A DNA stretch of 64,000 nucleotides from an uncultured Acidobacteriaceae bacterium (GTDB lineage Bacteria; Acidobacteriota; Terriglobia; Terriglobales; Acidobacteriaceae): assembly GCA_963738085.1 (NCBI GenBank), contig CAVTVC010000009.1, positions 62,454-126,453 of the forward strand, written 5' to 3'. Positions 26,217-57,901 of the stretch are shown piece after piece (position 1 is the first letter of the stretch; the number at the start of each line of letters is the position of its first letter). Below the pieces are notes generated by a model. The model made no database searches and was not told the DNA's origin. It was given only the letters and a program-made list of their open reading frames with translations. Both the position numbers and the translations under genes were made by a program.

Positions 26217-26273
26217 CCCACATCTCAGAATCGAGATATGCGCACCCAGCGCCCGGCGAAGATGGGGCACCCG
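26217..26273 (+). repeat. REP-like palindrome (family 1) plus partial second unit
   Basis: CCCACATCTCAGAATCGAGATATGCGCACCC followed by GAAGATGGGGCACCCG. Confidence 0.85.
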
Positions 26274-26282
26274 ATTCCGCGG

Positions 26283-26747
26283 CTACGGCTTTAGGTTTTT
26301 CGTGTCCTGGATGGTGCCGATTTTGATGTCGGATTGTTTGCAGGATTTGTCGCGGCAGAAGCCGGTGATCCAAACCTCGCCGTCGCCGATCATGGCACCC
26401 TGGGAGTTGACGAAGAGATTTTCGTATTTTTGTTTCAAGATTGCGTCTTCTATGTCGTGCGTGAGGATACGGTCGTAGTCTTTTATGAACTCTTTCTGAT
26501 TTTTGACGGTAAAGGGCTTTTTGCCGGGATTGACCTTGATGGGGTAGTGGACGAGGGAGGCTACTGTGGAGGCGTCATGTTTCGCGACGGCCTGTTGGAG
26601 TTGGGTGAGGATTGTATGGACCTTGGTGTGGTCGCCTACGGAGAGGTCAATGGATTTGTCGAGGTCGGTGAGGGCGGTTTGGGTGCGGCCCGGCAGGGCG
26701 ATGAGCGCAAAGATGGCGACGAGTGCGAGGTGGGTGCGGATGGTCAT
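26283..26747 (-). CDS. Secreted hypothetical protein
   Basis: Signal peptide, globular composition, QGAMIGDGEVWI and a C-terminal Cys pair. Confidence 0.75.
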   Translation of the reverse strand: MTIRTHLALVAIFALIALPGRTQTALTDLDKSIDLSVGDHTKVHTILTQLQQAVAKHDASTVASLVHYPIKVNPGKKPFTVKNQKEFIKDYDRILTHDIEDAILKQKYENLFVNSQGAMIGDGEVWITGFCRDKSCKQSDIKIGTIQDTKNLKP

Positions 26748-26823
26748 TCCGTCTCCATAGAGGTGTATTTAGCCCTGGTGGGATAGGCTACACGTCTTCG
26801 AGAAAAGACGATAGACGCGTTGT

Positions 26824-28574
26824 GTGGCTAAGATGCTAGTCGAAGCGATTTGGTGGATCGAAGGCGGAGGAATTGTTTTGGAGAATGCTTTGGTGTCGAA
26901 GGTGGATGGGAAAGCGGCGCGGTTTGGGGCGAATCGTGAGGCGCTGCGGGTATTGATGGCGGCGTTGCGGGTGGAGGAGGACGAGATTCGGCTAGGTGGC
27001 GGGGCGAAGGCGGCGGAGGCTCAGCGGGCCAAGGGGAGGCTGACGGTTCGGGAGCGGTTGAAGCTGCTGCTGGATGAGGGGGCGGAGTTTCTGGAGCTGG
27101 GGCTGTGGGCGGCGTATGGGATGTATGAGGAGTATGGCGGTGCTCCGGCGGCTGGGGTGGTGACCGGGCTGGGGAGGGTGAGCGGGCGGCTGTGCATGGT
27201 CATTGCGAATGATGCGACGGTGAAGGCGGGGGCGTTTTTTCCGATGACGGCGAAGAAGGTGTTGCGGGCGCAGACGATTGCGCTGGAGAATCGGATTCCT
27301 ACGCTTTATCTGGTGGATTCGGCGGGGGTGTTTCTGCCGCTGCAGGAGGATGTGTTTCCGGATACGGATGATTTTGGGCGGGTGTTTCGGAATAACGCGG
27401 TGATGAGCTCGCTGGGGGTGCCGCAGATTACGGCGATTATGGGGATGTGCGTGGCGGGTGGGGCGTATCTGCCGGTGATGACGGATACGGTGCTGATGAC
27501 GGAGGGGTCGGGGTTGTTTCTGGCGGGGCCTTCGCTGGTGCAGGCGGCGATTGGGCAGAAGACCGGGGCGGAGGAGCTGGGTGGGGCTTCGATGCATAGC
27601 GAGATTTCGGGGACGGTGGATTTTAAGGAGCCGAATGATCATCTGTGTCTGGCGCGGTTGCGGTCTTTGGTGGGGAAGATTGGGGAGCGGGCTGGGCGCT
27701 CCGTTTTCGCGGGTGGCTTTTGATGCGGTGAAGGATGCTCCGAAGTATGCGGCGGAGGATTTGTATGGGTTGATTGATCCTGATCCGGCGAAGGCGGCTA
27801 CGAATGTTTATGACATGCATGAGGTGATTGCGCGGATCGTCGACCGCAGCGAGTTTGATGAGTACAAGGCGGAGTTTGGGCGGACGGTGTTGTGCGGGTA
27901 TGCGCGGATTGGCGGGCGGGCGGTGGGGATTGTTGCGAATCAGAAGATGAATCAGTCGCAGACGGCGCTGGACGGAAGCAAGCGGACGGAGTTTGGCGGG
28001 GTGATCTATACGGAGAGTGCGCAGAAGGCGGCGCGGTTCATTATGGATTGCAACCAGAGCCTGGTGCCGCTGATTTTTCTGCATGACGTGAATGGGTTCA
28101 TGGTGGGGAAGGATGCGGAGTGGAGCGGGATTATTCGTGCGGGGGCGAAGATGGTTTCGGCGGTGAGTACGAGTCGTGGTGCCGAAGATTACGGTGATTG
28201 TGGGCGGGAGTTTTGGCGCGGGGCACTATGCGATGTGCGGGAAGGCTTATGATCCGCGGTTTTTGTTTGCGTGGCCTACGGCGCGGTATGCGGTGATGAG
28301 TGGGGCTTCGGCGGCGAATACTCTGGTGGAGGTTCGGGTGAAGCAGATGGAGCGTGGCGGCAAGACGATCTCCGAGGAAGAACGGAAGGGGATTTATGAC
28401 GAGATCAAGGCGACTTATGATGCTCAGGCTGATCCGAGGTATGGGGCGGCGCGGCTCTGGATCGATGCGATCATTGATCCGGCGAAGACGCGGGAGGTGC
28501 TGATGACGGCGCTGGAGGCGGCTAGTTTGAATCCTGAGGTGGCGAGGTTTAATCTGGGGGTTTTGCAGACGTGA
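26824..28574 (+). CDS. Acyl-CoA carboxylase beta subunit (methylcrotonyl-CoA carboxylase-like); two +1 frameshifts in this sequence
   Basis: NDATVKAGA, YLVDSAG, GMCVAGGAY, GSFGAGHYAMCG and YGAARLWIDAII spread over three ORFs. Extra bases near 27697 and 28176. Start uncertain. Confidence 0.88.
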
Positions 28575-28852
28575 TTTCGCGGCGGACTATCGTGATACTT
28601 GGACTCGCGGTTTTTTTGTTTGCGATTCCTCAAGCCTTCTACGCAGGAGAGCATACTGATTGCCATGTCATTCATGTAGCGTCGCTAAAAGGTCCGACGC
28701 TGCTGAGCGAAGCCGAAGTGACGTTCGATGTGTGTTCCATGGTCGACTTTGGAATGTATCCATGGATGCGCTATTCATTTCTCGCGGGCTTTGTAGCTCT
28801 GATCGCAACAGCGATTTCATATCGTTTGGATAGAAGAATGCACACAGTTTGA
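28571..28852 (+). CDS. Small two-TM hypothetical membrane protein
   Basis: 93 aa with hydrophobic segments at both ends. GTGA overlap with the upstream stop; fills the gap to hmgL. Confidence 0.55.
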   Translation: MISRRTIVILGLAVFLFAIPQAFYAGEHTDCHVIHVASLKGPTLLSEAEVTFDVCSMVDFGMYPWMRYSFLAGFVALIATAISYRLDRRMHTV

Positions 28853-28869
28853 CTAACCAGAGAGAAAAA

Positions 28870-29743
28870 ATGAGTGACTTGGTGAAGATTATTGAATGTC
28901 CGCGGGATGCATGGCAGGGGTTGCCGAAGAATATGCCGGCGGAGGTGAAGGCGGACTATCTGCGGGTGTTGATTGCTGCAGGGTTCAAGCATATCGATGC
29001 GGTGAGTTTTGTTTCGCGGACTGCGGTGCCGCAGATGGCGGACTCGGAGATGGTGTTGGAGTATTTGGATCCGCCGGATGATGTGGAGATTATCGGGATT
29101 GTCGTGAACGCGAAGGGAGCTGAGCGCGCGGTGAAGACGGGGAGCGTGCAGACGCTGGGGTTTCCTTATTCGATCTCGCCGGAGTTTTTGAAGAGGAACC
29201 AGGAGCAGACACCGGAGGAGTCTCTGGAGGAGTTGGAGAAGGTTGGGACGCTGGCGTACAAGGCGGGGATGGATGTGGTGGCGTATATCTCGATGGCGTT
29301 TGGGAATCCTTATGGTGAGGCGTGGGATATCGATGAGGTCGTGGCGGCTTGCGATCTGCTGGCGGATAACGGGCGTGACGCAGATTTCTCTGGCGGATAC
29401 AGTGGGGTTGGCGACGCCGAAACTGGTCGCCGATGTGGTGAGCGATGTGATGGCGGTGCATGACAATGTCGAGATTGGGGTGCATCTGCATGCTCGGTCC
29501 GACAATGCGGCGGCGAAGGTGCGGGCAGCTTATGAGGCTGGGTGCAGGCGGTTCGATGCGGCGATCGGCGGGTTGGGCGGATGTCCGTTTGCGCAGGATG
29601 CGCTGGTGGGGAATATGGCGACGGAGACTTTGCTGGCGGAGTTGAAGGCGCTGGGTGCGGAGTTGCCGCCGCTGAGGCCACTGGATGGCTTGATTGCGGC
29701 TAGCGCGGAGATTTCGCGGAAGTATGGGGCGCAGGTGCAGTGA
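28870..29743 (+). CDS. hmgL: Hydroxymethylglutaryl-CoA lyase; one +1 frameshift near 29371
   Basis: ECPRDAWQG, SLADTVG, GVHLH and GGLGGCPFA motifs across two ORFs. Confidence 0.88.
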
Positions 29744-29789
29744 GGGCAGCTAGACAGCGGTTAGCGAGTTAGCAGGTTTTGGAGGGTTT

Positions 29790-30577
29790 ATGAGTTATGC
29801 GACGATTCTGGTTACAGAAGAAGATGGGGTTCGGACGGATCACGCTGAATCGTCCGGAGCGGCGGAATGCGATGACGCCGGAGATGCAGGAGGAGTTGAT
29901 TGCCGCGATTGAGGAGGCTGCGGCGGGCGATTGTCGCGTGGTGGTGTTTGCGGGAGCGGGTGAGGCGTTTTGTGCGGGGCTGGATCTGAGTGCGTCTGCA
30001 GGGGATGAATGATAAATCTGCAGACGAGCACACGGCGGATGCGACTCGAGTTGGCGCGGTTGTTTCGGACGCTTTATGAGTTGCCGAAGCCGACGATCGC
30101 GGTGGTGCAGGGGGCGGCGATTGCCGGTGGCACGGGGCTGGCGACGATGTGCGACTTTACGCTGGCGGTGCCGGGGGCGAAGTTTGGATATACGGAGGTG
30201 AGGATCGGATTTGTGCCGGCGGTGGTGTCGGCGTTTTTGACGCTGCAGATCGGGGAGAAGCGGGCTCGGGATCTGTTGTTGACGGCGCGGTTGTTTTCTG
30301 TCGGACGAGGCGTTGCGGTTGGGGCTGGTGAATGAGGTGGTCGAGGCGGAGAAGCTGGAGTCTCGGTGCGCAGAGCTGGCTGGGATGTTGAAGGCGAACA
30401 GTCCGGAGGCATGGCGGCTACGAAGACGACTGCTGGCGGCGCAGAACAAAGCGTGGCTGGATGACGGCGGTGGCAGTCGCGTTGGCGGCGAATGCTGAGG
30501 CGAGGTCGACGCATGATTTTCGCGAGGGCGTCACGGCGTTCCTGGAGAAGAGAAAGCCGGTATGGGGGAAGTCTTAA
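29790..30577 (+). CDS. Enoyl-CoA hydratase/isomerase (methylglutaconyl-CoA hydratase-like); several frameshifts in this sequence
   Basis: TLNRPERRNAM, FCAGLDL, AIAGGTGL, GYTEVRIGFVP and DFREGVTAFLEKRKPVW fragments in shifting frames. Confidence 0.8.
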
Positions 30578-30635
30578 CGCCGACTTACATCGATGACACC
30601 GATTCGAAATGGATTTAAGTCGGTAGACTGTTGGG

Positions 30636-31070: not shown

Positions 31071-31105
31071 ATTCGCTGTTCAGATTGAAGACGAGGTGAG
31101 ATACG

Positions 31106-43902: not shown

Positions 43903-44286
43903 TCAGCGAAGCGGTTTGCCGATCTCCCAGTGGTGGCCGAAGGGGTCGAGGAGGCGGCCTATGCGCCAGGCGTGTTCGATCCGGATGGGGCAGACGATGG
44001 TGGCTCCGGCGGCGATGGCTCGGTCGAAGGCTGCTTCGGGGTCTTCGGTGGTGAGGATCATTCGGACGGTGCCACCGTTGAGGGTTTCGGGGCTGAAGTT
44101 CTGGTGCTCGGGGGATTCGTCGGCGACCCAGAAGCTGTAGCTGTTGATGGAGAGATTGCAGACTACGGCGCCGGATGGGTCTTCGTGGCGGAAGAGCTCT
44201 TCGGCTCCAAAGGCGGATTTGTAGAAGTCGACGGCTTTGGCTCCGTTGCGGACGGAGAGGAAAGCGGCGAGGGTGGTGGAGGTCAT
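43903..44286 (-). CDS. VOC/glyoxalase (PhnB-like) protein
   Basis: AVDFYKSAFGA and WRIGRLLDPFGHHW. Confidence 0.88.
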   Translation of the reverse strand: MTSTTLAAFLSVRNGAKAVDFYKSAFGAEELFRHEDPSGAVVCNLSINSYSFWVADESPEHQNFSPETLNGGTVRMILTTEDPEAAFDRAIAAGATIVCPIRIEHAWRIGRLLDPFGHHWEIGKPLR

Positions 44287-44350
44287 GGAGACTCCTTTCG
44301 GATGGGTGGGAGTAGTTTACGGTTGGGAGCGACGACAGTTCGCGCCTTCG

Positions 44351-44395
44351 CGCGAATTCCCACTCATGCGATGAGACTGCATGAATGGGGCACCC
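44351..44395 (+). repeat. REP-like palindrome, family 1 variant
   Basis: CGCGAATT-CCCACTCATGC...GCATGAATGGG-GCACCC: same flanks as family 1 with a different stem. Confidence 0.75.
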
Positions 44396-44518
44396 ATGGT
44401 CTCGGCTACATTTCATGTGCGGGCCACGCAGCCATGATGAATCAGGAATCGGGGGTGTGCTATGCTGTGTCGCATCCAGCAGCCCAAAATCGGAATCCTC
44501 GTTAAGAAGGAATCAGCC

Positions 44519-45055
44519 ATGAACCGCAAAAGCAAGCTCACGATTGCGAGAGCCACGGCAGCGCTCGTCCTCCTCGGCGCCTCGGCCGTTTACCCGCAGG
44601 AAAAGTACTCCCTGATATCGCCGGGCGGGATTGCGTTCTCCGACTTCAAGGGATATGAGGACTGGTCGGTGGTCTCTTCGGCCCGGACCGACGAAGTGCT
44701 CAAGGTGATCGTCGCCAATCCAATCATGATCAAGGCGTTCAAGGCGGGCATTCCGGGTAACGGCCAGCCTTTCCCGGATGGTGCCAAGATCGCGAAGCTC
44801 CAGTGGAAGCCGAAGAAGAGCACGGAGGCCCCTTTCGTCGTGGATGTGCCAGACATCTTCAAGCAGGCTTTCGTTATGGAAAAGGACAGCAAGAGGTTTC
44901 TGAAAGACGACGGCGGATGGGGATACGCGGTGTTCAACTATGAAGCCGCATCGGGCAAGTTCACGGCGGATTCCAGTCCCGTAAATTGCGGGACCACGTG
45001 CCATAAGGCCGTGAAGGCGAAGGACTACATCTTCCACCCGTACCAGAAGCGTTGA
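44519..45055 (+). CDS. Cytochrome P460/c'-beta family periplasmic heme protein
   Basis: Signal peptide, FPDGAKIAK, GGWGYAVF and C-terminal CGTTCH followed by KDYIF. Confidence 0.82.
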   Translation: MNRKSKLTIARATAALVLLGASAVYPQEKYSLISPGGIAFSDFKGYEDWSVVSSARTDEVLKVIVANPIMIKAFKAGIPGNGQPFPDGAKIAKLQWKPKKSTEAPFVVDVPDIFKQAFVMEKDSKRFLKDDGGWGYAVFNYEAASGKFTADSSPVNCGTTCHKAVKAKDYIFHPYQKR

Positions 45056-45056
45056 A

Positions 45057-45094
45057 GCGGATCTGCCCGGCGTCGAGTACCCGGGCAGATCCGC
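45057..45094. terminator. Perfect 14-bp inverted repeat between convergent genes
   Basis: GCGGATCTGCCCGG-N10-CCGGGCAGATCCGC. Confidence 0.7.
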
Positions 45095-45112
45095 CGAATG
45101 GTGCGTGTCGGT

Positions 45113-45853
45113 TCAGGCGTTGGTTCCACCATCAACGGTGAGATTGGCCCCTGTGATGTACGAGGACTCGGGGCTGGCGACGAAGGACACCAGGGCGGCG
45201 ACCTCGTCTGGTGTACCGTAGCGTTTGAGTGCTGTAACGGCTATTTGGGGAGCTGCCCAGTCGCCTGCGGCGGGATTGAGGTCGGTGTCGATAGGGCCGG
45301 GCTGGACGTTGTTGACGGTGATGCCGCGGCTGCCGACCTCCCGGGACAAGCCCTGGGTGAACATCTTTACCGCTCCCTTGGTGGCTCCATAGGCTGCCAG
45401 TCCGGGAGTCATGTTTTTCTCCCCGACGCAGGAGCCAATCATGATGATGCGGCCGTTGTCGTTCATGTTCTTGAGAGCCGCCTGGGTCGCGACCATTACG
45501 CCGCGGAAGTTGAGGTCGATCATGTGGTCCATCTCCTCGAGCGTCGTCTGCTCGAATGGCTTGGGGATGGCGGTGCCTGCGTTATTTACGAGGACGTCCA
45601 ACTTGCCCAAAGTCGCGACGATTTTTTCGACTGCGGCATTGATCGCTTTGGGATCGGCGGCGTCCGCCTGGATGGCGAGTGCCTTTCCGCCGCTGCCTTC
45701 GATTGCTTTGACCACGGCGGAGGCTGCGTTGGCGTCCTTCGCGTAGGTGATGGCCACGCTCGCTCCATCTGTGGCCAGACGCTTTGCGATCGCGGCGCCG
45801 ATTCCTCGGGAACCGCCGGTAACAAGTGCCACTTTATTGGCTAGCTTCGACAT
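45113..45853 (-). CDS. SDR oxidoreductase (3-oxoacyl-ACP reductase-like)
   Basis: TGGSRGIG, VNNAG, YGATK and VQPGPIDTD. Confidence 0.92.
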   Translation of the reverse strand: MSKLANKVALVTGGSRGIGAAIAKRLATDGASVAITYAKDANAASAVVKAIEGSGGKALAIQADAADPKAINAAVEKIVATLGKLDVLVNNAGTAIPKPFEQTTLEEMDHMIDLNFRGVMVATQAALKNMNDNGRIIMIGSCVGEKNMTPGLAAYGATKGAVKMFTQGLSREVGSRGITVNNVQPGPIDTDLNPAAGDWAAPQIAVTALKRYGTPDEVAALVSFVASPESSYITGANLTVDGGTNA

Positions 45854-46041
45854 ACACTCTCCTTTGGTTTTCTGTAATTTTTTTAGGGCGCTGATTTTCT
45901 AGCTGATGAGGATGCTGCTGGGAGCTTTCGGTTCATATCTGATGCGCTGCTCGTATGGGTGGATGCGTCAGTTTGAGGGAGACAAGCTATTGGATAAGAA
46001 ATGCGGAGATCGTAGGGAGGAGAAAGCGGTTCGCCGCTTTG

Positions 46042-46118
46042 CGCGAAGACCCACATCTGAGAATCGAGATATGGGACACCCGACTTCTGTGGCTCAATTT
46101 AGATATGGGCCACCCGGC
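46042..46118 (+). repeat. Long REP doublet (family 1)
   Basis: Full hairpin plus TGTGGCTCAATTTAGATATGGGCCACCCG tail. Near-identical direct repeat of 48124-48202. Confidence 0.88.
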
Positions 46119-46120
46119 AT

Positions 46121-46786
46121 TCAGGAGGAGAGACCCTTTTCGACCATAAGGATGAGGCATTCGCTGAGGGTTGAGATCTCGGCGGGCGTAGCGGTGTGGA
46201 GCGGGCCGTCGATGACTAGGAAGGCGAGGCCATGGACGGCGGACCAGGCGAGATACTCGGCGCGGGGGCGGCGGTTGCGGGGGAGGAGGCGGTGCAGGAC
46301 CATCAGGTCGAGGGCGTGGCCGAGGAGTTGGAAGGGGTTGAGGCCGCTGGCGCCGGTCTTTGCCTTGTCGTCGTCGCCGATGACTGGCTGTGTGTTCGAG
46401 AAGGCGGTGCGGAAGAGGCCGGGCTGGTGGAGCGCGAAGGTGAGGTAGCCGATGCCGACGGCACGGAGGCGGGCGCGGGCGAGCGCGGCACCGCGGCGAC
46501 GGGGCGGGATGGCGGCGATCTCGGCCTCGATGGTGCGGGCGAGCTGCGAGAGGGCGTGGGCGCGGACGGCGGCGAGCAGCTCGGCGTGGCTGGAGAAGTG
46601 GCGGTAGGCGGCGTTGGGGACGACGCCGGCGCGGCGGGTGGCCTCGCGGAGAACGACGGCTGCGGGGCCACCTGTGCGGGCGAGCTCGACTCCGGCGGCC
46701 AGCAGGGTGCGTGGGAGATCGCCGTGGCGGAAGGTGGTCCTTGCAGGGGTGGGTGGCGCGGGAGTCTTCTTCGGCTTCGTCATCAT
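46121..46786 (-). CDS. TetR/AcrR family regulator (WHG-type C-terminal domain)
   Basis: FRHGDL, VLREATRRAGVVPNAAYRHF HTH and WSAVHG. Confidence 0.9.
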   Translation of the reverse strand: MMTKPKKTPAPPTPARTTFRHGDLPRTLLAAGVELARTGGPAAVVLREATRRAGVVPNAAYRHFSSHAELLAAVRAHALSQLARTIEAEIAAIPPRRRGAALARARLRAVGIGYLTFALHQPGLFRTAFSNTQPVIGDDDKAKTGASGLNPFQLLGHALDLMVLHRLLPRNRRPRAEYLAWSAVHGLAFLVIDGPLHTATPAEISTLSECLILMVEKGLSS

Positions 46787-46790
46787 TGCT

Positions 46791-46846
46791 TGTGGACAGT
46801 GTACAGATTGTTCGCATAGCATCGCTGCATGTGAACAATGTCCACA
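46791..46846. promoter_or_regulatory. Two imperfect palindromic operators in the TetR/hypothetical divergent promoter
   Basis: TGTGGACAGTGTACAGA (46791-46807) and TGTGAACAATGTCCACA (46830-46846); 14/17 identity to each other's reverse complement. Confidence 0.65.
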
Positions 46847-46890
46847 TTTTGGACGACCGAAGCAAGTGAAGATGCTTTTTCAAGGAGGCT

Positions 46891-47607
46891 ATGCAGATGG
46901 CGAATCGGATGGTTGGAGCGATCATGTCTGGCGTGGTGTATGGAACGATCCTTCTCGGTGTGGCTGGGGTGGGGTGGGCGCAGGGAGCGAAGGCGCCGTA
47001 TCCTGCGATGGCCCCGGTGGAGCAGTACCGCGTGGCGAGCGTGGCGGAGGAGATTGCGTTGGCGCGTAGTGCGGCAAATGAGGCTGTGAGCCGCGATGCG
47101 GAGGTACTGGTGCTCGGAGGGCACGGCTACGAGACGGAGGCGAAGGGGACGAACGGCTTCGTCTGCCTGGTCGTGCGGTCGTGGGCGACCGGCTTCGATG
47201 ACCCGGAGTTCTGGAACCCGAAGGCACGTGCGCCGCACTGCTTCAACGCCGTCGCGGCGCGCTCGGTGTTGCCGGCGTACCTGAAGCGGACGGAGTGGGT
47301 GCTCGCCGGGTTGACGAAGGAGCAGGTGAAGGAGCGCATGAAGGAGGCGGTGGCGAAGAAGGTCTTCACGGCGCCAGAGGAGGGATCGATGTGCTACATG
47401 CTGTCGAAGCAGGGCTACCTGAACGATCACGATGGCCATTGGCATCCGCACCTGATGTTCTTCCTTCCCCCGACGGAGGCGGCGAGCTGGGGCGCGAATC
47501 TCAAGGGCTCGCCGGTCTTCGCCGCGCCGGGAGACGTCGAGCCAGTGACGACTTTCTTTGTTCCGGTGACGAAGTGGTCGGATGGGACGATGGAGGAGAT
47601 GAAGTGA
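46891..47607 (+). CDS. Secreted hypothetical protein with Cys/His motifs
   Basis: AGGAGG RBS, signal peptide, APHCFN, CYML and HWHPHLMF. Confidence 0.78.
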   Translation: MQMANRMVGAIMSGVVYGTILLGVAGVGWAQGAKAPYPAMAPVEQYRVASVAEEIALARSAANEAVSRDAEVLVLGGHGYETEAKGTNGFVCLVVRSWATGFDDPEFWNPKARAPHCFNAVAARSVLPAYLKRTEWVLAGLTKEQVKERMKEAVAKKVFTAPEEGSMCYMLSKQGYLNDHDGHWHPHLMFFLPPTEAASWGANLKGSPVFAAPGDVEPVTTFFVPVTKWSDGTMEEMK

Positions 47608-47627
47608 CGATTTGAGTTTGTTGCGGG

Positions 47628-48091
47628 TTAGGATTTCATAATCAGGAATGGGGATGGTTCGTTCAGGAGATAGTGGCGATAGGTGGACAAAGGCCAGTCT
47701 TCCGTGTTTTTGACGAGGCCGCGGGTGACTGGGGTTGCGGTGCATGTACTCCAGCTTTTCGACGCGCTGTTGTGGGTGAAGACATTGAAGTCGTAGTAGC
47801 GGGGTTGCCAGAAAGGGCGTTCGGCGAGGCGTCTGGAGGCGGAGATTTTCAGAGCCTGTAGAGCTTTTGAGAGAGGGGCTTCGGGAGGTTCGCTCATGAG
47901 GATGTGCACGTGCTCTGGCATGACGACGTAGCCGAGGATTTCGAATTGATAATGGCTTCGTGTGCGTTCGAGAGAGTCGAGGAAGATGTCTCTTGAGTTT
48001 GCGTGTTGAGGTAAGGTTTGCGGTTGTGACAACTAAAGGTGATGAAATGATCGTCGCCTTCTTAGTGGTATCGCTTGAGCCCAAACGGCAT
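47628..48091 (-). mobile_element. REP-associated tyrosine (Y1 HUH) transposase RAYT, inactivated (TAA at codon 10 plus about three frameshifts)
   Basis: MPFGLKRYH*...HFITFSCH, YVVMPEHVHIL (HUH), FWQPRYYD, KLEYMHRNP (catalytic Tyr) and W.LSTY; adjacent REP palindromes. Confidence 0.88.
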
Positions 48092-48123
48092 GGGTTGATT
48101 TTAGAGCATCGGGTTCGCGCGTG

Positions 48124-48202
48124 GCGCGAATGCCCACATCTCAGAATCGAGATGTGGGGCACCCAGTTTTTGTGGCTTCAATTTAGATGTGGGCCACCCG
48201 CC
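48124..48202 (+). repeat. Long REP doublet (family 1) directly upstream of RAYT
   Basis: Perfect stem CCCACATCTC-AGAATC-GAGATGTGGG (48133-48158), GCACCC and the shared tail. Confidence 0.9.
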
Positions 48203-48670
48203 CTAGTTCTTGACGGTCATCGCGTCGGAGTCCACGGCTTTCTTGCCGGTGATGCCTTCCAGAGCCATGAGAATTCCGCGGTAGTCGTTCTTATCGCACT
48301 GCATGACGAAACCGCCCTTCTGATCGCCATTGGCATAGGTGATGCCAATGAAGTGTTTCTTGGACTTGCTCAAGGCCATGAGGGCCCCAATTCCGAAGGA
48401 GACTACGGCAAGCCCGATGGCGGCACCGACCCGCCGGTGGACATCCTGTCCGTAAGAAATCTCGGTAATTGCGGAAGCGGGAACGGTGACTAGATCCTTC
48501 TTGTTTTTAGCCAAGCGCACCTGCGTCTGTTCGATTGCAAACTCGGCGGAAGAGCCGGATTTGACGGATTGAATCGATCCGCCGTCGTAGGCGACCTTGT
48601 AGCTGTTATCCGCCGCAAAGGCGACCGTGGGAACTAATAGGCAGAGAATTGCTGCAATAAAACTTTTCAA
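48203..48670 (-). CDS. Secreted/membrane hypothetical protein
   Basis: TTG start with AAGGA RBS, signal peptide, internal Gly-rich hydrophobic hairpin. Confidence 0.72.
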   Translation of the reverse strand: MKSFIAAILCLLVPTVAFAADNSYKVAYDGGSIQSVKSGSSAEFAIEQTQVRLAKNKKDLVTVPASAITEISYGQDVHRRVGAAIGLAVVSFGIGALMALSKSKKHFIGITYANGDQKGGFVMQCDKNDYRGILMALEGITGKKAVDSDAMTVKN

Positions 48671-48736
48671 TTTAAATCCTTTGTAGTGGAATGTCAGAAT
48701 TATGCTGCTATCGCGCATCTAGCAATCCAAGACTCC

Positions 48737-48776
48737 GCGCGAATGCCCACATCTCAAAATCGAGATATGGTGCACC
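48737..48776 (+). repeat. REP-like palindrome (family 1)
   Basis: GCGCGAATGCCCACATCTCAAAATCGAGATATGGTGCACC. Confidence 0.85.
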
Positions 48777-48957
48777 TGATTCTGTGGGCTCGGATACCGA
48801 AGTAGGACTTCGGGGAATCCATTCTCTAATTCTAAGAAGTAATAAACTTTTCGTCATTGCGTCAAAGCAATCTAACTCAGGCCACAGACGCGTTTGAAGC
48901 CCCTAGACGAGAGATGGCCAGATTTTTAGTGTGCGATTGCAGGAGCATTTTTGATCT

Positions 48958-53287: not shown

Positions 53288-53289
53288 AG

Positions 53290-53661
53290 TCAGCGGATCT
53301 GGATGAGGTTGGGGTTGCCATCGAGGCCAAGGGTTTTGCGGCCTGCGGGTGTGATGCTGAGGGGTGACCATGCGGGCTCGTGAACGAGGACGACTTCAGT
53401 TTGGCTTACGGCTTCGAGGCCAGCGAGGCGGTTGACGATCTGCGCTGTGAGTTGGGCTTCGGATGCTTCACTGGATTGCGTGGGGGTGATTTCGATTTTG
53501 ATGGTGTGCTTTTGCGGAACGCCGGGGATGTGGGTGCCGGGGGCGTCGAGATCGCGGGCGATGGCGATGGAGCGGATGAGACCGAGGTCGACTATGTTGC
53601 AGGGGAGGACCGGGTCGTAGCAGTCGCGCAGGGCTGTGATGACGTCGGTTTCCGTGAGCAT
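53290..53661 (-). CDS. Metal-sulfur cluster assembly factor (DUF59/SufT-like)
   Basis: ALRDCYDP...NIVDLGLI and LVHEPAWSP. Confidence 0.8.
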   Translation of the reverse strand: MLTETDVITALRDCYDPVLPCNIVDLGLIRSIAIARDLDAPGTHIPGVPQKHTIKIEITPTQSSEASEAQLTAQIVNRLAGLEAVSQTEVVLVHEPAWSPLSITPAGRKTLGLDGNPNLIQIR

Positions 53662-53776
53662 TGCTGACTTGATGATATCCGTTGTTGCAAGTGGCGGTGG
53701 AGAAGGCCCGGGCTGGAGGCCCTCGCAAAACAGAAAGCAAGCGGTGCGGCTGAAGTCGCACGCTTGCAAAAGCCGG

Positions 53777-54814
53777 TTAGTGGCCGCCTGCCGCGGAGGT
53801 CGAGGAGATGTTCGACCAGGCGAGGCCGTCGGCGGTGTTTCCAGCGTCGATGAGGGACTGGACCTTCCATGTCTTAATGTCGATGGCGGCGACTTTGTTT
53901 TCTGTGTTGCAGGAGACGTAGGCGACGAGGCCGTCGGGGCGGATGAGGACCTCTTGCGGCTGGGCGGGAACGTCGATGGTCTTGACGACGGTGAGGGTCT
54001 GGAGATCGATGACGGCAACTTTGGAGGATTTGGAGAGGCAGAGGATGAGGAAGCGGCCGTCGTGTGTAGACGCGCTGCCGTAGCCAGTGCCTGGGAGAGG
54101 AATCCATGTTTTGAGTTTGCGGGTGGCGGTTTCGATGACCGCGAGACGGGGCTTGTCCCAGTCGGACGTGAAGAGGAGCTTGTCGTCGTTGCTGATGGAG
54201 ATGCGCTGGACTTTTACGGCTCCGGCTTCGCCGAGGGGGATGATGGCAATGGTTTTGTGCGTGTCGAGGTCGAGGACGGAGACGCTACTGGCTCCTACGT
54301 TGGTGGTGTAGGCGAAGCGGCCGTCGTGGGAGAGGGCGAACATGTGGGACTCGGGTGCGCCGGTGGGGATTTTGTAAAGGATCTTGAGGGTTTTCGGATC
54401 GATTGCGGTGATGGCCTGATCGAGTTCGGTGGAGACGTAGAGGATGTTGCGATGGGTGTCGTAGACGGGGAGATGGGGGCGGACGCCGTGGCCGAAGTCG
54501 ACCGTACTGGTGATTTTGTGCGAGGGGACGTCGATGACGAGCATCTCGTGGCCGTCGGTACCGGCGCGGCCTACGCCGGCGTTACCGTAGATGGGGACGT
54601 AGGCGGTGTGGCCGTCGGGCGAGGTAGTGACTTCGTGGCCGGTGATGCGATCTTCCTGGAGAGCGAAGGTTTGTTTTGCGGTGGCCGCGTCGATGAAGGA
54701 GAGAGTGTGGTCCTTTTGATTGGCTACGAGGAGGGTGCCTTGCGCGTGGGCTGAAGGAATGGCGATGGCGAGGGACAATGCGAACAGGCAACCGGTGACG
54801 GGAAAAATCTTCAT
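53777..54814 (-). CDS. Secreted YncE/YVTN beta-propeller protein
   Basis: Signal peptide and repeated xSxDG...AY/V..ID blades. Confidence 0.82.
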   Translation of the reverse strand: MKIFPVTGCLFALSLAIAIPSAHAQGTLLVANQKDHTLSFIDAATAKQTFALQEDRITGHEVTTSPDGHTAYVPIYGNAGVGRAGTDGHEMLVIDVPSHKITSTVDFGHGVRPHLPVYDTHRNILYVSTELDQAITAIDPKTLKILYKIPTGAPESHMFALSHDGRFAYTTNVGASSVSVLDLDTHKTIAIIPLGEAGAVKVQRISISNDDKLLFTSDWDKPRLAVIETATRKLKTWIPLPGTGYGSASTHDGRFLILCLSKSSKVAVIDLQTLTVVKTIDVPAQPQEVLIRPDGLVAYVSCNTENKVAAIDIKTWKVQSLIDAGNTADGLAWSNISSTSAAGGH

Positions 54815-54864
54815 AGGTCGCGAGTTTACATGGTTGCGATTGCGAGGGTGAAGAGAGTTGCCGT

Positions 54865-55917
54865 TTAGTTTTTTCGTTCGACGAGGTATTGGGCGAGGGA
54901 TTTTAGGGGTGTGGCGGCTTCGCCGAAGGGTTCGAGGGCGGCGAAGGCGTCGGCGATTAGTTCTTCGGCGTCTTTGAGGGATTTTTCTATGCCGTAGACG
55001 GCGGGCCAGGTGGCTTTGGTGGTGGCGGTGTCTTTGCCTGCGGTCTTGCCCAGCTCTTCGGAGCTTTGCGTCATGTCGAGGACGTCGTCGACGATCTGGA
55101 AGGCGAGGCCGGCTTTTTCGCCGAAGGTGCGGAGGCGGGCGATGGTGTCGACAGAGACTGCGTGGTGCTCTTCGAGGCCCTTCTGCAGCGCGTCGAGGCG
55201 AGCTTTGGCGGCTGCGACGGTTTCGCCGCCGCGGCGATCGGCGGCTCCTGCGAGCCCCATGGAGCCGCGCATCTGGCGAATACCGAAGAGGCCGCCGGAG
55301 ACGATGCTGGTGGTGATGAGGGCTCCGGTCTTGGCGCGGTGGATGGATTCGACGAGCTCGGCAGTGGGCGCTTTGCCTTCGGATTCGATATCGACTACCT
55401 GGCCGCCGATCATGCCGGGAGGAAGTGCGGTTTGGAGGTCGCCGACGCGGCCTACTCCGGTGCCGATGGCGAGAGAGACGTCTTTGAGGATGGCGACTAC
55501 GGTTGCGGATGGGGCGGGGAGCTGGGCGATGGTTTGGAAGGCGAGGGTCTGGAGCGCGTCGCCGGCGAGGATGGCGATGGCTTCGCCGAAGACGACGTGG
55601 CAGGTGGGGTGGCCACGGCGGAGGTCGTCGTTGTCGAGGGCGGGGAGATCGTCGTGGATGAGGGAGTAGGTGTGGATCATCTCAAGGGCTGCGCCGAGAT
55701 TGGCGGCGCCTTCGGGGATTGCTCCGGTTCCGGCGACCATCCGTGCGGCCTCCATGCAGAGGATGGGACGGAGACGCTTGCCGCCGGCGAAGACGCTGTG
55801 GCGCATGGCTCGGTGGATGGAGTGAGGGAGGGTGTCAGGTGAGGGCAGGAGACGTTCGAGGGCGCGGTCTGTGAGTTCGGCGCCGGAGACGAGCAGGGTT
55901 TTTACTGTGGAGTCCAT
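54865..55917 (-). CDS. ispA: Short-chain polyprenyl diphosphate synthase (FPP/GGPP synthase)
   Basis: GGKRLRP, YSLIHDDLPALDNDDLRRG (FARM), KTGALI, FQIVDDVLD (SARM) and GKTAGKD. Confidence 0.88.
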   Translation of the reverse strand: MDSTVKTLLVSGAELTDRALERLLPSPDTLPHSIHRAMRHSVFAGGKRLRPILCMEAARMVAGTGAIPEGAANLGAALEMIHTYSLIHDDLPALDNDDLRRGHPTCHVVFGEAIAILAGDALQTLAFQTIAQLPAPSATVVAILKDVSLAIGTGVGRVGDLQTALPPGMIGGQVVDIESEGKAPTAELVESIHRAKTGALITTSIVSGGLFGIRQMRGSMGLAGAADRRGGETVAAAKARLDALQKGLEEHHAVSVDTIARLRTFGEKAGLAFQIVDDVLDMTQSSEELGKTAGKDTATTKATWPAVYGIEKSLKDAEELIADAFAALEPFGEAATPLKSLAQYLVERKN

Positions 55918-55991
55918 CTGGTGTTGATGATAAATGAGCTTGTACGACCGCGGATTTTTGCGGCAGTGAAGGGAGGGCAAAAGCAAATGCA

Positions 55992-56047
55992 GGTCCTTCG
56001 ACTGCGCAGCTCGCAAAGGCGCGAGTTGCTTCGCTCAGGGGGACAAT
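55992..56047 (+). repeat. Palindromic repeat family 2
   Basis: GGTCCTTCGACTGCGCAGCTCGCAAAGGCGCGAGTTGCTTCGCTCAGGGGGACAAT; abuts the stop of the 56048 gene. Confidence 0.8.
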
Positions 56048-57901
56048 TTATGGGCGGGTTTTACGTAACGCAAAGACGGAGAGGAGTGCGAGGGAGATTA
56101 CGGAGATGAAGTCGCCGAGGGTTTGGTCGAGGGTTTGCATGTAAGTGATGTTGATTTTGTAGTCCGCGGCGTAGATGGGAAGAGCGACGAGACCGTCATC
56201 ACGGTGAATATGTCTTGGGTGGTCGAGGCTCAGGCTGTTGGAGTCTGTGCTTGTGATGTCCCAGGATGGGTAGTCGCGCAGGTTAAGTATGAGATACCCC
56301 GGTTGGGCCGCTTTGAAGGAGAAGTGGGTGGGTGCGGGACCGGGCCGCGCGTTGATTGGGGCTTTTCCGTTGGGATCCGATGAGATCCAATACGAAGGGT
56401 TCGTTTGGGCGAGGGAGTCGTTATCGGCGGTTGTGGGGGTGTATTCGTCGGTGGGGTCGGTGCCTTGATTGGAGTGGAAGACGGCGAGGCGGGCTTGCAC
56501 GGTGTCACTGGGGTCGCAGGTTTGATGGAAGACGGTATAGGCCGGGTAGATCAAAGCTGCGACTATGACTGCCGCGAAGGCAGCTGTTGAGAGGGGGGTG
56601 AGTTGGATCGGTTTGAGGACGAGGGCCAGCGTTAGTGCGAAGACTGCGGCGAGGATCGCGAGGAGACGCCAGGGGAATTGGAGGAAGGCTAGTTCGGGGG
56701 CGTGGTTCCAGATGAAAGCAGTTAAGGGGGTGAGTAGGAGAGCGATCGCGATAGTTAGAACAGCGAGGGCATAGAGGAGTGGACGCTTGGGGGAAGCGGT
56801 CGCGCTTTCGCTCGAGGCCCACGTTAGGCGCAGAAGATGCGTCGAAGATGGGGCCCCCGAGTTTGTGGATGGAGTGCTCTTGTTTGTGGCTGCCAGATAA
56901 GTTAGCGCTAGAGCGGTTAGGGTGATCAGGGCGATGGCGATGAGTGAGGCGGTGTGGAGGACCTGGTCGTGGGCGGCGTCGTCGGTGTGGTGGAAGAGGA
57001 AGTTGTCATGGATGCGGTAGAAGGGGATGATCGCCATGGCGATCTGAACGAAGCGGCGTTCGTAGGCGGCGGGGAGGATGTAGAAGGCAGCCAAGGTGAG
57101 GCCGAGGATGGTTCCCGCTGCTGCGTTGATGGCTAGTTGGAGCGGTGTCTGGGATTGGGGGGGGCTGGTATTGGAATGGGTTTGAGCGTTCGCGCTTTCG
57201 CGCGATACCCACATCTCAGAATCGAGATATGGGGCACCCGGATTTGTTGCGCTTCGGTTATTCGAAGCCACAGGGATGAATCGGCTTGAAGAGTTGGTGG
57301 CCAGCCGAATGACGGTTAAGAGGGCGAGGGCGTAGCAGCTCATGACGGCGGCGGGGGCGTTGGTGAGCCAGAGGAGTGCGACGGGGATGGCGATGCGGGG
57401 GATGGTGATTTTGCTGCTCAGGATGGCGTGGAGGAGGAGCGGGATGAAGGCAGCGGCGAGGAGTTCGGCGTAGGCTGTGCGCTCGTAGGCGGTGAAGAGC
57501 ATGTACGGGTTGACTGTGTATACGATTGCGGCGATGAGTGCGGCTTTGGAATTGGTGAAATCGCGGGCGAGATAGTTGAGACTGAGGCCGGCCGCGGAGA
57601 GGGCCAGCCATGTGTAGAGGATCGGAGTCCACTGCCAAGGAAATATGAGGCCGAGGATGGCTCCGATGGTCCAGGAGAGCGGCGGGTAGAAGACGAAGCG
57701 GGGTTCTCCGGCGTTGTATGCGGGAGAGAAGGCCCAGTGCGGGTGGAGATTGCCGTGAGTGAATTGGCGTGCGGCTTCCATCCAGTTGAGGAGGTGGAAG
57801 TCGAAGTCGTGGCCGCAGGAGCAGCCGTTGATGAGAAGTGGCAGGATGGCGACGAGCGCGGCTAAGGGGATGAGGATGTATGATAGCCGATCGCGGTGCA
57901 T
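56048..57901 (-). CDS. Polytopic membrane protein, PTPS-related/GT-C-like family
   Basis: GHDFDFH, GEPRFVFYPP, YTVNPY...ERTAYAE and LQFPWR; two low-complexity loops containing REP sequence. Confidence 0.78.
   Translation of the reverse strand: MHRDRLSYILIPLAALVAILPLLINGCSCGHDFDFHLLNWMEAARQFTHGNLHPHWAFSPAYNAGEPRFVFYPPLSWTIGAILGLIFPWQWTPILYTWLALSAAGLSLNYLARDFTNSKAALIAAIVYTVNPYMLFTAYERTAYAELLAAAFIPLLLHAILSSKITIPRIAIPVALLWLTNAPAAVMSCYALALLTVIRLATNSSSRFIPVASNNRSATNPGAPYLDSEMWVSRESANAQTHSNTSPPQSQTPLQLAINAAAGTILGLTLAAFYILPAAYERRFVQIAMAIIPFYRIHDNFLFHHTDDAAHDQVLHTASLIAIALITLTALALTYLAATNKSTPSTNSGAPSSTHLLRLTWASSESATASPKRPLLYALAVLTIAIALLLTPLTAFIWNHAPELAFLQFPWRLLAILAAVFALTLALVLKPIQLTPLSTAAFAAVIVAALIYPAYTVFHQTCDPSDTVQARLAVFHSNQGTDPTDEYTPTTADNDSLAQTNPSYWISSDPNGKAPINARPGPAPTHFSFKAAQPGYLILNLRDYPSWDITSTDSNSLSLDHPRHIHRDDGLVALPIYAADYKINITYMQTLDQTLGDFISVISLALLSVFALRKTRP
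56805..56860 (+). repeat. Diverged intragenic REP (family 1 variant), in frame
   Basis: GCTTTCGCTCGAGGCCCAC...GAAGATGGGGCCCCCG; encodes GAPSSTHLLRLTWASSES. Confidence 0.6.
57199..57240 (+). repeat. Intragenic REP (family 1), in frame
   Basis: GCGCGATACCCACATCTCAGAATCGAGATATGGGGCACCCG; encodes PGAPYLDSEMWVSR. Confidence 0.9.

Follow-up and report, generated by a model that had tools for sequence, protein, structure and literature searches.

The seven hairpin repeats dispersed over positions 26217-57240 of the window (the whole 64-kb stretch of DNA analysed here) and the Y1 gene among them very probably represent a REPtron, in which a RAYT (a Y1 HUH single-strand DNA nuclease-ligase) is accompanied by its cognate family of REP-like hairpins. 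This supports the RAYT/REP interpretation in a preliminary description of this DNA, but the pair occurs family-wide in Acidobacteriaceae, not in one genome alone, and the window RAYT is a dead copy. The system is of an ordinary kind, and is found here in soil Acidobacteriaceae, where the element and RAYT pair had no prior description as such.

Anatomy of the repeat unit

The element is a composite unit of ~90-110 nt. In the + strand reading it comprises a GC-rich hairpin 1 (TTCGCGC-N3-4-GCGCGAA), a hairpin 2 in which the 4-bp foot (CCCA/TGGG) is constant, a C·A irregularity is conserved and the upper stem covaries freely, and the tag CACCC, or GGGTG when read from the complementary strand. Many copies have, in addition, a second module that is a half-copy, reading GGGTGG-CCCACATCT on the strand opposite the + reading. 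On the C-rich strand, which is the RAYT coding strand and on which the irregularity is T·G, the order is 5'-[GGGTGG-CCCACATCT half module]-spacer-GGGTGC-[hairpin 2]-CA-[GC-rich hairpin 1]-3'. The core previously reported for the repeat was found, but the unit is larger, including the extra GC hairpin and the half-copy module.

The tag abutting the main hairpin is GTGC (extended GGGTGC), which stands close to, and in place of, the canonical GT[AG]G tetranucleotide absent from the foot of that stem, and GTGG is present only in the half module. The preliminary description gave the family a tag of its own, but with GTGC next to the stem and GTGG in the second module the tag is near canonical rather than exotic.

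Among 121 copies there were 98 distinct hairpin-2 sequences, nearly all of which fold, with mean folding energies of -16.0 kcal/mol on the G-rich strand and -19.3 kcal/mol on the C-rich strand, compared with -7.9 kcal/mol for shuffled interiors. Watson-Crick pairing was found in 552 of 598 upper-stem pairs (92%), and the irregularity at position 5 is C·A in 63 of 85 stems. In this respect the element resembles a REP, since it is a short palindrome with imperfect pairing, lies between genes and can fold when single-stranded.

Copies in the window

An nhmmer profile built from the 121 copies, all from other genomes, recovered exactly the seven sites described previously, all on the + strand (E-values from 1.6e-17 to 8e-05), with no further match at E<10 in the 64 kb. 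The strict pattern CCCACATCTC-N6-GAGATRTGGGGCACCC, allowing up to 3 mismatches, matched at 46050, 48133, 48746 and 57208, again all on the + strand (0 matches expected in 100 shuffles), and direct reading added three variant copies at 26217, 44351 and 56805. All seven copies are intergenic, and four end within ~15 nt of a stop codon.

The two perfect copies are those at 48124 and 57199. The former belongs to the fourth element (48111..48209, +), a full unit with hairpin 1, hairpin 2, CACCC, spacer and module 2, which lies ~20 nt upstream of the RAYT ATG as the conserved REPtron copy and has its far end ~6 nt from 48203, the end coordinate of a 171-aa gene on the minus strand. The latter belongs to the seventh (57185..57261, +), which has a perfect core just 3' of a minus-strand gene ending at 57258 and is kept at the orthologous site in L112 and L094. 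The proposal that the best-conserved copies cluster around the Y1 transposase is only partly right: of the two perfect copies, that at 57199 is 9 kb away, and the gene has four of the seven copies within a distance of 4 kb.

The remaining copies depart from the full unit in various ways. The first (26192..26296, +), located just 3' of a minus-strand gene ending at 26283, is decayed: its hairpin 1 has become TCGTGC-ATC-GCACGA by compensatory changes, and its hairpin 2, CCCACATCTC-AGAATC-GAGATATG, is that of the strict matches but lacks two G of the foot and is followed by an extra tagged right arm, GCGAAGATGGGGCACCC. The second (44331..44420, +), in the divergent intergenic region between glyoxalase (-) and cytochrome P460 (+), belongs to a different stem subfamily (CCCACTCATGC-GATGAGACT-GCATGAATGGG), despite which hairpin 1, foot, tag and module 2 are unchanged. 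The third (46021..46137, +), of the ATCTC type, has a tag mutated to GACACCC and AGATATGGGCCACCC as module 2, and its end is 5 nt from the stop codon of a TetR gene (-). The fifth (48735..48789, +), ~170 nt 3' of the stop of ffh (-), is decayed, having a hairpin 1 without left arm and GTGCACCT as tag, and its orthologue is intact in L071. The sixth (56789..56878, +) represents a third stem subfamily (CCCACGTTAGGCGCA-GAAGA-TGCGTCGAAGATGGGG) with a tag mutated to GCCCCC. The preliminary description was right that stem subfamilies share constant flanks, as the 98 distinct hairpins confirm, but had flagged only 44351, whereas 56805 is also a variant.

The RAYT gene

The Y1 ORF at 47628-48032 (-) matches Pfam Y1_Tnp at 9.7e-10, and comparison with intact homologues identifies 47628..48091 (-) as a RAYT (TnpAREP-like Y1 HUH) pseudogene. 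Relative to L099, L121 and L122, codon 10 of the window gene is TAA in place of CAA, and single nucleotides have been deleted at two points and inserted at one, giving one nonsense codon and three frameshifts. A conserved Trp has also changed to Leu, and the EHVH and YMHRNP motifs are retained in different reading frames. The leader directly before the ATG (48092..48110, -) is conserved, reading CGATGCTCTAAAATCAACCC in the window and CGATACCCTAAAATCAACCC in homologous loci, with TAAAAT 6-7 nt before the ATG and no Shine-Dalgarno sequence.

The intact homologues encode proteins of 154-157 aa without C-terminal extension. That of L099 scores 107.1 bits on NF047646, the NCBIfam model 'REP-associated tyrosine transposase' (cutoff 80), and falls below the cutoff of the IS200 model NF033573 (36.6 bits vs 55), while the best solved relative of these proteins is E. 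coli TnpAREP (PDB 4ER8, E=2.2e-10). Residues H61 and H63 (H61-V-H63), Y116, N120 and P121 are conserved in 23 homologues, and a homologue is already labelled in one source as 'REP-associated tyrosine transposase [Edaphobacter albus]'. Judged by these profile matches, the Y1 gene is of the RAYT/TnpAREP class (class 2 Y1 HUH), in agreement with the RAYT features first noticed in it.

Linkage and synteny

Inspection of the REP flanks of intact homologues, as suggested in the preliminary description, corroborates an acidobacterial RAYT/REP pair. Among the 15 RAYT loci examined, eight of which were found through the protein alone, the element lies just 5' of the RAYT start in 14, ending ~20-40 nt before the ATG; the exception, L129, is degenerate. 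Where the 3' side is readable, elements are also found directly 3' of the gene (seven loci of the first set, plus L127 and L128), whereas only the 5' copy is present at the window locus. Direct flanking of the RAYT gene by cognate repeats, as expected of a REPtron, was observed in L099, L101, L047, L055, L043 and L103 and also in the protein-ascertained loci L121-L123 and L125-L128. By tblastn, RAYT remnants were detected in ~7 of 113 element-bearing 8-kb blocks, where <1 would be expected for a low-copy gene.

The RAYT adjoins ffh in at least six genomes (the window, L101, L047, L043, L121 and L122), and the ffh genes of genomes sharing this site are 80-90% identical to that of the window. 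This common location suggests vertical descent, not hopping, and the syntenic site of the gene also sets the repeat apart from the ends of a mobile insertion sequence. The context of the RAYT differs in L123 and L125-L129. Presence and absence of whole units was also seen between orthologous spacers (L117 373-540 vs window 11561-11578), and at orthologous sites the element is 92% identical, compared with ~82% for flanking genes.

Distribution and orientation

A pattern scan of one genome per species gave at least 120 blocks, with ~113 from Acidobacteriaceae among the matches listed; the seven matches listed from outside this family fail the profile and were rejected as not being the element. 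The element is present in at least ~100 Acidobacteriaceae genomes and is spread through the whole family. The window contains seven copies per 64 kb and, in blocks with an element, another 0.51 copies were counted per 8 kb, giving an estimate of ~1 copy per 9-16 kb that rests on the window and on 8-kb blocks chosen for containing an element. In metagenomes, contig depth rises ~100-fold at element positions.

Orientation relative to GC skew is nearly uniform, with 118 of 124 strict matches, 159 of 171 profile hits and, where |skew| exceeds 0.05, 146 of 151 copies lying the same way. New findings here are this bias, which takes in 93-97% of copies and accounts for the rarity of inverted pairs, the singlet form of the elements and their usual position behind stop codons. 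Elements occur as singlets or direct repeats, and the inverted REPIN/BIME doublet is not the repeated unit, since 159 of 171 copies are on the G-rich strand; some 3' copies are inverted, with inverted partners found only beside some RAYT genes (L122, L123, L127 and L128). Elements usually lie just after stop codons: in ~82% of copies with a callable neighbour, the tag-side gene is encoded on the strand of the GGGTG reading and has its end immediately ahead of the element.

Proposed mechanism and alternative explanations

By analogy with the TnpAREP systems of E. coli, Stenotrophomonas and Marinomonas, the most likely mechanism is that the enzyme recognises the constant parts of the element (tag, foot and irregularity) once it is folded as a single strand, and nicks and rejoins nearby. 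Units would thereby be copied or relocated where replication forks expose single-stranded DNA, a route that would account for nearly all copies facing one way with respect to GC skew. The TnpAREP of E. coli needs a conserved irregularity in the stem, and in known systems the tag serves as a guide (PMC8266576). Copies accumulate after stop codons, where they would be co-transcribed and probably play a secondary role as 3' RNA hairpins. With its RAYT a pseudogene, the window probably holds seven immobile relics, several of them decaying. Several other lineages carry RAYT fragments only, yet their repeats persist at orthologous sites. This retention beside a dead enzyme, with conservation exceeding that of flanking genes, suggests that the elements have moved little of late and are under selection in another role.

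In a rival explanation, the elements would act chiefly as RNA, with selection preserving them as pairs of hairpins in 3' UTRs that block exonucleases, halt transcription or dampen the termination of translation, and with the RAYT a historical source or bystander. This is less likely than the REPtron explanation, with which it is compatible as a second layer. It agrees with the ~82% of callable copies that follow the tag-side gene end on the strand of the GGGTG reading, with an irregularity that forms a G·U wobble on the GGGTG strand, the better-folding strand for 79 of 98 hairpins, with the retention of copies at orthologous sites above neighbouring-gene conservation, and with their persistence where the RAYT is dead; a metatranscriptome contig also covers the copy at 46042 exactly, such contigs being without strand information and possibly including DNA. 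However, neither hairpin is followed by a T-run (a U-tract in RNA) on either strand and a terminator scan gave only chance-level results at the elements, so that an intrinsic terminator was rejected. No match to Rfam 15 (including the Acido-1 motif) was found at gathering thresholds over the whole window, nor on the elements up to E=5. Orientation is predicted by GC skew in 68 of 71 cases but by the neighbouring gene in 59 of 71, upper-stem wobble pairs have no clear strand preference (13 vs 7), and the fixed position of elements beside RAYT genes would be left unexplained.

It is very improbable that the repeats mark the ends of an insertion sequence of the IS200/IS605 type, the solo copies being MITE-like miniatures and the gene a selfish transposase moving with its ends. 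Like IS608 and ISDra2, the system has Y1 HUH chemistry, hairpins on one strand (subterminal in those elements) and a strand-specific orientation relative to replication; same-strand hairpins bracket the Y1 gene in most loci, as do the LE and RE of IS200, many gene copies are decayed, as those of insertion sequences often are, and the gene context differs in L123 and L125-L129. Membership was nevertheless rejected on the NF033573 score, when the RAYT model was passed, on the syntenic locus beside ffh in at least six genomes, and on flanks identical to the dispersed elements, which are not distinct LE and RE and include some inverted 3' copies. Furthermore, there is no tnpB, no multiple identical gene copies were seen in the loci compared, and solo hairpins are estimated at about a hundred per gene. 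Still more improbable is that the elements are bound as duplex DNA by a host protein, for instance a nucleoid protein, gyrase or a regulator, with tag and half-copy forming a direct-repeat operator and the hairpin incidental. The most conserved parts are indeed sequence blocks, with AGATRTGGGSCACCC occurring twice, ~35 nt apart, and GCGCGAA constant, and E. coli REPs bind IHF, Pol I and gyrase (PMC6006769). Nonetheless, the 98 different, covarying upper stems, 92% Watson-Crick, show selection on single-strand folding, which a duplex binding site does not need, and neither the strict strand orientation nor the RAYT linkage would be explained.

Returning to the REPtron, some features speak against it: the main tag departs from GT[AG]G, inverted doublets are not the repeated unit, and the orientation fits poorly. 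The G-rich strand is presumably the leading strand, its sequence being that of the lagging-strand template with the tag 3' of the hairpin, and the 5'-GGGTG strand and the RAYT gene are on the opposite strand. The favoured strand appears opposite to the IS200/IS605 expectation if the 5'-tagged strand is active, which makes the orientation awkward for the IS608 model. One tentative reading is that this REP family spreads and persists as strand-specific singlets, with the RAYT and 5'-tagged strand opposite to the IS608 prediction; the enzyme may read only the constant tag, foot and mismatch, leaving the upper stem free, and once the enzyme is dead the repeats may be kept for a role as RNA hairpins in 3' UTRs. 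If true, it would provide a natural system separating DNA-level (RAYT) from RNA-level (host) constraints on REPs, and a direct test of REP dissemination coupled to the replication fork.

Comparison with known repeat families

The closest parallel is the REP/BIME and TnpAREP system of E. coli (REPtron Ec; RAYT group 2, subclass 2.2; 4ER8). Both have a Y1 HUH enzyme with a Y---NP motif and a gene flanked by its own intergenic hairpin repeats. In both, the repeats are grouped around the gene and located after stop codons, and the hairpins combine a G-C foot with a stem irregularity and, next to the foot, a short tag, the last two being conserved. They differ in the tag, which is GTAG in E. coli and GTGC/GGGTGC in the window family, with GTGG only in the half module, and in residues that contact GTAG in E. 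coli, which by alignment differ here (E100>D, H101>F, R104>F). The E. coli repeats also form inverted BIME doublets, whereas those of the window family occur singly on one strand, possess an additional GC hairpin and are hypervariable in the upper stem.

The REPIN-RAYT systems of Pseudomonas (RAYT groups 2 and 3) have a RAYT that is vertically inherited at a fixed site, as the acidobacterial gene may be, and are similar in their long-lived cognate repeats, some beside the gene. In the work of Bertels and Rainey on these systems, the replicating unit is reportedly an inverted doublet (REPIN), unlike the acidobacterial copies, 93-97% of which have one orientation. The acidobacterial RAYT, also unlike that of Pseudomonas, has decayed repeatedly while the repeats remain.

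Within Acidobacteria, RAYT-like genes termed TIRYT were described in Terriglobus saanensis, Granulicella mallensis, Acidobacterium capsulatum and Koribacter, flanked by repeats that have the G-rich motif GGGGWSAS in common (TIRtrons; Di Nocera et al. 2013, PMC3733652) that were described as terminal inverted repeats unrelated to REPs (PMC3733652). These genes were mapped to subclass 2.1 (Quentin et al. 2018, PMC6006769), whose proteins are ~238 aa with a C-terminal HTH and for which no REP was found (PMC6006769). The TIRYT survey may have seen part of the same system. Assignment to TIRYT or subclass 2.1 was rejected on protein length (154-157 aa without the extension), on flanking copies that are mostly direct as well as hairpin-forming and dispersed, and on motif misfit, GGGGCACC departing from GGGGWSAS at two positions; the families are set apart here by their published descriptions.

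The Class 3 TnpAY1 of Planctomycetes and Acidobacteria is associated with CnGA-footed structures, ~600 copies of which occur in Solibacter usitatus (PMC6006769). It shares with the window family a REPtron-like arrangement of an acidobacterial Y1 gene and hairpin repeats without GTAG, which in Class 3 are in high copy. The Class 3 tyrosine motif, however, is YV[VI]xEQ with W[TA], whereas the window family has YMHRNP with WQ, as in class 2, and its foot and tag differ too.

Structure and copies of the repeat unit

The element shared by the seven window copies comprises two hairpins and a tag. On the plus, G-rich strand, hairpin 1 reads GGTTCGCGC-N3-4-GCGCGAAT and hairpin 2 consists of GCCCAC, a variable stem and loop, and ATGGGG, followed by the tag CACCC and the spacer RGWTYTGTGG. 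Many copies carry a second module, TTAGATGTGGGCCACCCGYC, a repeat of the right arm and tag. The opposite strand, which encodes the REP-associated tyrosine transposase (RAYT), reads 5'-GGGTGG-CCCACATCT ... GGGTGC-hairpin 2-CA-hairpin 1-3', the tag being GTGC beside the stem and GTGG in the half module. The core repeat of the preliminary description is therefore real but too small, as the full unit also contains hairpin 1 and the second module; the tag proposed there as the family's own does differ in its main form (GTGC/GGGTG) from GT[AG]G, but it is near-canonical rather than wholly different. RNA folding predicts twin hairpins in every window copy, including 26217, in which hairpin 1 is TCGTGC/GCACGA, a compensatory change.

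The core pattern, with at most two mismatches, matches at 46050, 48133, 48746 and 57208, all on the plus strand, with none expected in shuffled sequence. In copy 26217 the hairpin is unchanged, but two G of the foot are missing and there is an extra tagged right arm. Alignment of all seven copies revealed quite different stems between common flanks in 44351, as had been proposed, and also in 56805. An nhmmer profile trained on 121 copies, all from other genomes, recovered exactly the seven sites 26217, 44351, 46042, 48124, 48737, 56805 and 57199 in the 64 kb (E 1.6e-17 to 8e-05, all plus strand) and no eighth copy at E<10, so the original list is complete and correct. All seven are intergenic, and four end at most about 15 nt from a stop codon. 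Decay of copies 26217, 48737, 46042 and 56805 would fit the loss of the enzyme described below.

Two groups of tag-like matches were rejected as copies. The match at 62846 on the minus strand belongs to a hairpin at 62826-62870, where the inverted repeat GAGGGGC...GCCCCTC is followed on the plus strand by CTTTTTATAA, and which looks like an ordinary intrinsic terminator; the GGGTGCCCC within it is a chance occurrence outside the element family. Those at 19657 and 19714 lie within imperfect short tandem repeats (GATTGGCGCC / GTTGCCGTTGGC ...) of low complexity at 19600-19780, inside a long ORF, which in minus-strand reading would encode an Asn/Gly/Gln/Ala-rich low-complexity stretch.

The RAYT gene and its protein

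The ORF at 47628-48032 on the minus strand matches Pfam Y1_Tnp, and three-frame translation places the rest of the protein across different frames. Alignment with intact homologues identifies the gene as a pseudogene with four lesions: a stop at codon 10 (CAA>TAA), two 1-nt deletions and a 1-nt insertion. An intact homologue in another genome (locus L099) encodes 154 aa with 75% identity to the window gene. This protein scores 107 bits on NCBIfam NF047646, 'REP-associated tyrosine transposase' (cutoff 80), and 36.6 on the IS200 model, under the cutoff of 55, which upholds the earlier recognition of a Y1 HUH gene with RAYT features. Among proteins of solved structure its best match is E. coli TnpAREP (4ER8, E=2.2e-10), and it has more than 5,500 homologues, many of 154-157 aa, including one already named RAYT in Edaphobacter albus.

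Conserved residues among the homologues are H61, H63, Y116, N120 and P121. The signature EHVH / WQ / YMHRNP fits class 2 (Y---NP) of Quentin et al., with no exact fit to their subclass consensus strings. Alignment with 4ER8 indicates retention of W94 and Q95 and the changes E100>D, H101>F and R104>F at positions reported to contact GTAG (PMC6006769), changes that would agree with the altered tag. Decay of the gene has occurred independently in several lineages; frameshifts interrupt it in the window, L101 and L047, and fragments of it are left in L043, L103 and L065. A distant Y1_Tnp-like gene with about 26% identity to the RAYT (L017 730-1080, L076 271-621 and L091 339-689) has no element beside it and was left out of consideration; it may represent another Y1 family of those genomes.

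Linkage of the RAYT gene to the elements

A tblastn search with the repaired window protein of the 113 element-bearing blocks among the matches listed found RAYT sequences in about seven, where a low-copy gene of a 5-Mb genome would be expected in less than one. The intact gene of L099 has elements to either side. The RAYT loci studied number fifteen: the window's own, six found through the element scan (L099, L101, L047, L055, L043 and L103) and the rest found by protein identity (L121, L122, L123, L125, L126, L127, L128 and L129). In 14 of the 15 the ATG is preceded, at a distance of about 20-40 nt and in a constant relative orientation, by the end of an element, with the leader described below in between; L129 has degenerate copies only. 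Elements also adjoin the 3' side of the gene in most loci, in direct orientation in L099, L101, L047, L121 and L125 and inverted in L122, L123, L127 and L128. The repeats sought at the flanks of homologues are thus present in 14 of 15 loci, in a set with eight protein-found members. The RAYT with its flanking elements is a REPtron arrangement, i.e. a RAYT gene with its cognate REP repeats, as described for known RAYTs (PMC6006769, PMC8266576).

The gene adjoins ffh in the window, L101, L047, L043, L121 and L122, which points to vertical inheritance of a fixed locus, and lies in other contexts in L123 and L125-L129. A conserved leader precedes the ATG (window 48092-48110, minus strand; CGATACCCTAAAATCAACCC-ATG, variant GTAAAATCCACCC-ATG) and is common to the window, L099, L121, L122, L123 and L125-L128; in L121 the 3' element bears it too. 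Because a TAAAAT box lies 6-7 nt upstream of the start codon and no Shine-Dalgarno sequence precedes it, the sequence suggests a leaderless RAYT mRNA with a promoter overlapping hairpin 1; the scan found no sigma-70 -35 match here.

Distribution, stem variation and age of copies

A scan of one genome per species with the pattern GCGCGA-N2-3-CCCA-N16-30-TGGGGCACCC matched at least 120 eight-kb blocks; among the matches listed, about 113 derive from about 100 different Acidobacteriaceae genomes, including Terriglobus, Granulicella, Edaphobacter, Tunturibacter and many MAGs. Seven listed matches outside this family (Binatia, Thermodesulfobacteriota, Dactylosporangium and others) were attributed to chance, as they lack both the hairpin and a profile match. 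In the best-matching soil metagenome, contig depth at 44234-44467 and 47978-48211 is about 100x that of flanking unique sequence, and the element is therefore highly repeated in that soil community. The window seems to come from a soil-metagenome organism close to Edaphobacter.

The 121 usable copies contain 98 distinct hairpin-2 sequences, nearly all with a common geometry of a 4-bp foot (CCCA/TGGG), one irregular position and a variable stem. Shuffled interiors fold with a mean energy of -7.9 kcal/mol, compared with means of -16.0 for the G-rich and -19.3 for the C-rich strand of the real copies, and Watson-Crick pairs make up 552 of 598 pairs in the upper stems. At the irregular position 63 of 85 stems have C·A, corresponding to T·G (G·U) on the opposite strand, and one stem subfamily has a second conserved mismatch, A·G; wobble counting did not significantly distinguish a functional strand (13 vs 7). 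Stems that vary yet still fold indicate selection on single-strand folding, with tag, foot and irregularity held constant. This constancy is no product of the search pattern, since GGGTGCCCCAT is also present in elements reached by protein alone (L121-L128).

An orthologous spacer of 17 nt in the window (11561-11578) is represented in L117, a block from a related genome, by 167 nt (373-540) containing two whole units, one without hairpin 1; whole units are therefore gained or lost cleanly. This site delimits the mobile unit to about 92 nt, from GAGAGAGTGCGG to GTCAGGTGGA. Copy 57199 is kept at the orthologous site in L112 and L094, and copies 48124 and 48737 in L071, with 92% element identity compared with about 82% in flanking genes; these three copies are old. 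For copies 26217 and 44351, synteny with L075 and L043 stops at the gene, leaving the site comparison uninformative.

Orientation relative to GC skew

The window shows a very strong, uniform GC skew, between +0.13 and +0.41 per 2 kb, and has more T than A along most of its length. Third codon positions of minus-strand genes are 50-70% C (C3 >> G3), and plus-strand genes have G3 >= C3, which ties the skew to strand rather than gene. Across genomes, the G-rich strand carries the CCCA...CACCC sequence in 118 of 124 strict matches, 159 of 171 profile matches and 146 of 151 cases where |skew| > 0.05, and the C-rich strand encodes the RAYT at all 15 loci. This orientation bias relative to GC skew is new here.

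Where the neighbour could be called, the tag-side gene occupies the C-rich strand about 82% of the time, so the element usually lies just past a stop codon with GGGTG in the sense direction. About two thirds of crudely called window coding sequence is on the C-rich strand, compared with 59% in 113 related blocks, a figure possibly shaped by choosing blocks for an element. Skew predicted orientation in 68 of 71 cases and the neighbouring gene in 59 of 71; the gene caller (GC3>GC1>GC2) is crude and noisy, placing 25 elements inside false long ORFs, so gene-orientation figures are approximate and the two effects are not fully separable.

The G-rich strand is generally the leading strand. If that holds here, the lagging-strand template bears the tag 3' of the hairpin, an orientation opposite to the one that the IS608 model would give a 5'-tagged active strand.

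Proposed mechanism and alternatives

Element and gene very probably constitute a REPtron. With lower confidence than this identity, the RAYT would recognise folded single-stranded DNA by its constant tag, foot and mismatch, and may nick and rejoin it nearby. Published findings offer three parallels: E. coli TnpAREP requires both tag and stem bulge, the Marinomonas enzyme uses the tag to guide the choice of cleavage dinucleotide, and the tag-to-stem distance can be 0-2 nt (PMC8266576). The orientation bias suggests a connection with replication.

An element acting purely at the RNA level, a reading compatible with the REPtron, is rather unlikely. One metatranscriptome of unstranded contigs covers an element, copy 46042 being the only one shown covered, whereas Rfam gave no match in the whole window at gathering thresholds and none at the elements with permissive E-values on 44200-48900, leading to rejection of a described RNA family (e.g. 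Acido-1). Scans for sigma-70 promoters and intrinsic terminators likewise yielded nothing above chance at the elements, and orientation follows skew no less closely than it follows the neighbouring gene. A secondary RNA role is nevertheless suggested by the post-stop position, the G·U wobble and conservation after enzyme death. That the elements are ends of an IS200-type insertion sequence is improbable given the sub-cutoff IS200 score of the L099 protein, and a protein-binding site read as duplex DNA is slightly more so.

Relation to known families and implications

To our knowledge, REP/RAYT systems have been worked out almost wholly in Proteobacteria. Two broad surveys reported no canonical REPs for the Acidobacteriaceae RAYT-like genes considered here (PMC3733652, PMC6006769). 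They saw RAYT-like genes of Acidobacteria in two other forms only. One form is the 'TIRYTs', whose inverted repeats contain GGGGWSAS (PMC3733652) and which the later survey equates with subclass 2.1, a group in which it found no REP (PMC6006769); the other is the class 3 genes of Solibacter, reported with CnGA-footed structures (PMC6006769). In protein length, motifs and repeat form the family described here is distinct from either, as judged for TIRYTs by published descriptions. The protein class is already annotated by NCBI, and no published description of the Acidobacteriaceae element/RAYT family was found in open-access text. Its distinguishing features are the near-canonical GTGC/GGGTG tag, the twin-hairpin unit with half module, strand-biased singlets and a hypervariable upper stem.

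Conserved over many soil genera, with a fixed tag, foot and mismatch, about 100 natural variants of the stem, and both lineages that have a working enzyme and lineages that lack one, the family offers a comparative data set on RAYT recognition, REP spread and why hosts retain REPs, and the orientation bias is a testable tie of REP biology to replication. Recognising the unit also prevents spurious small ORF calls in Acidobacteria annotations and accounts for assembly break positions. Elements also occur in OY970299.1 (L029, L030 and L066), a complete 3.8-Mb MAG chromosome labelled 'uncultured Verrucomicrobiae', a label that is probably wrong; the chromosome has 78% identity across 1.2 kb to an Acidobacteriaceae MAG (L078).
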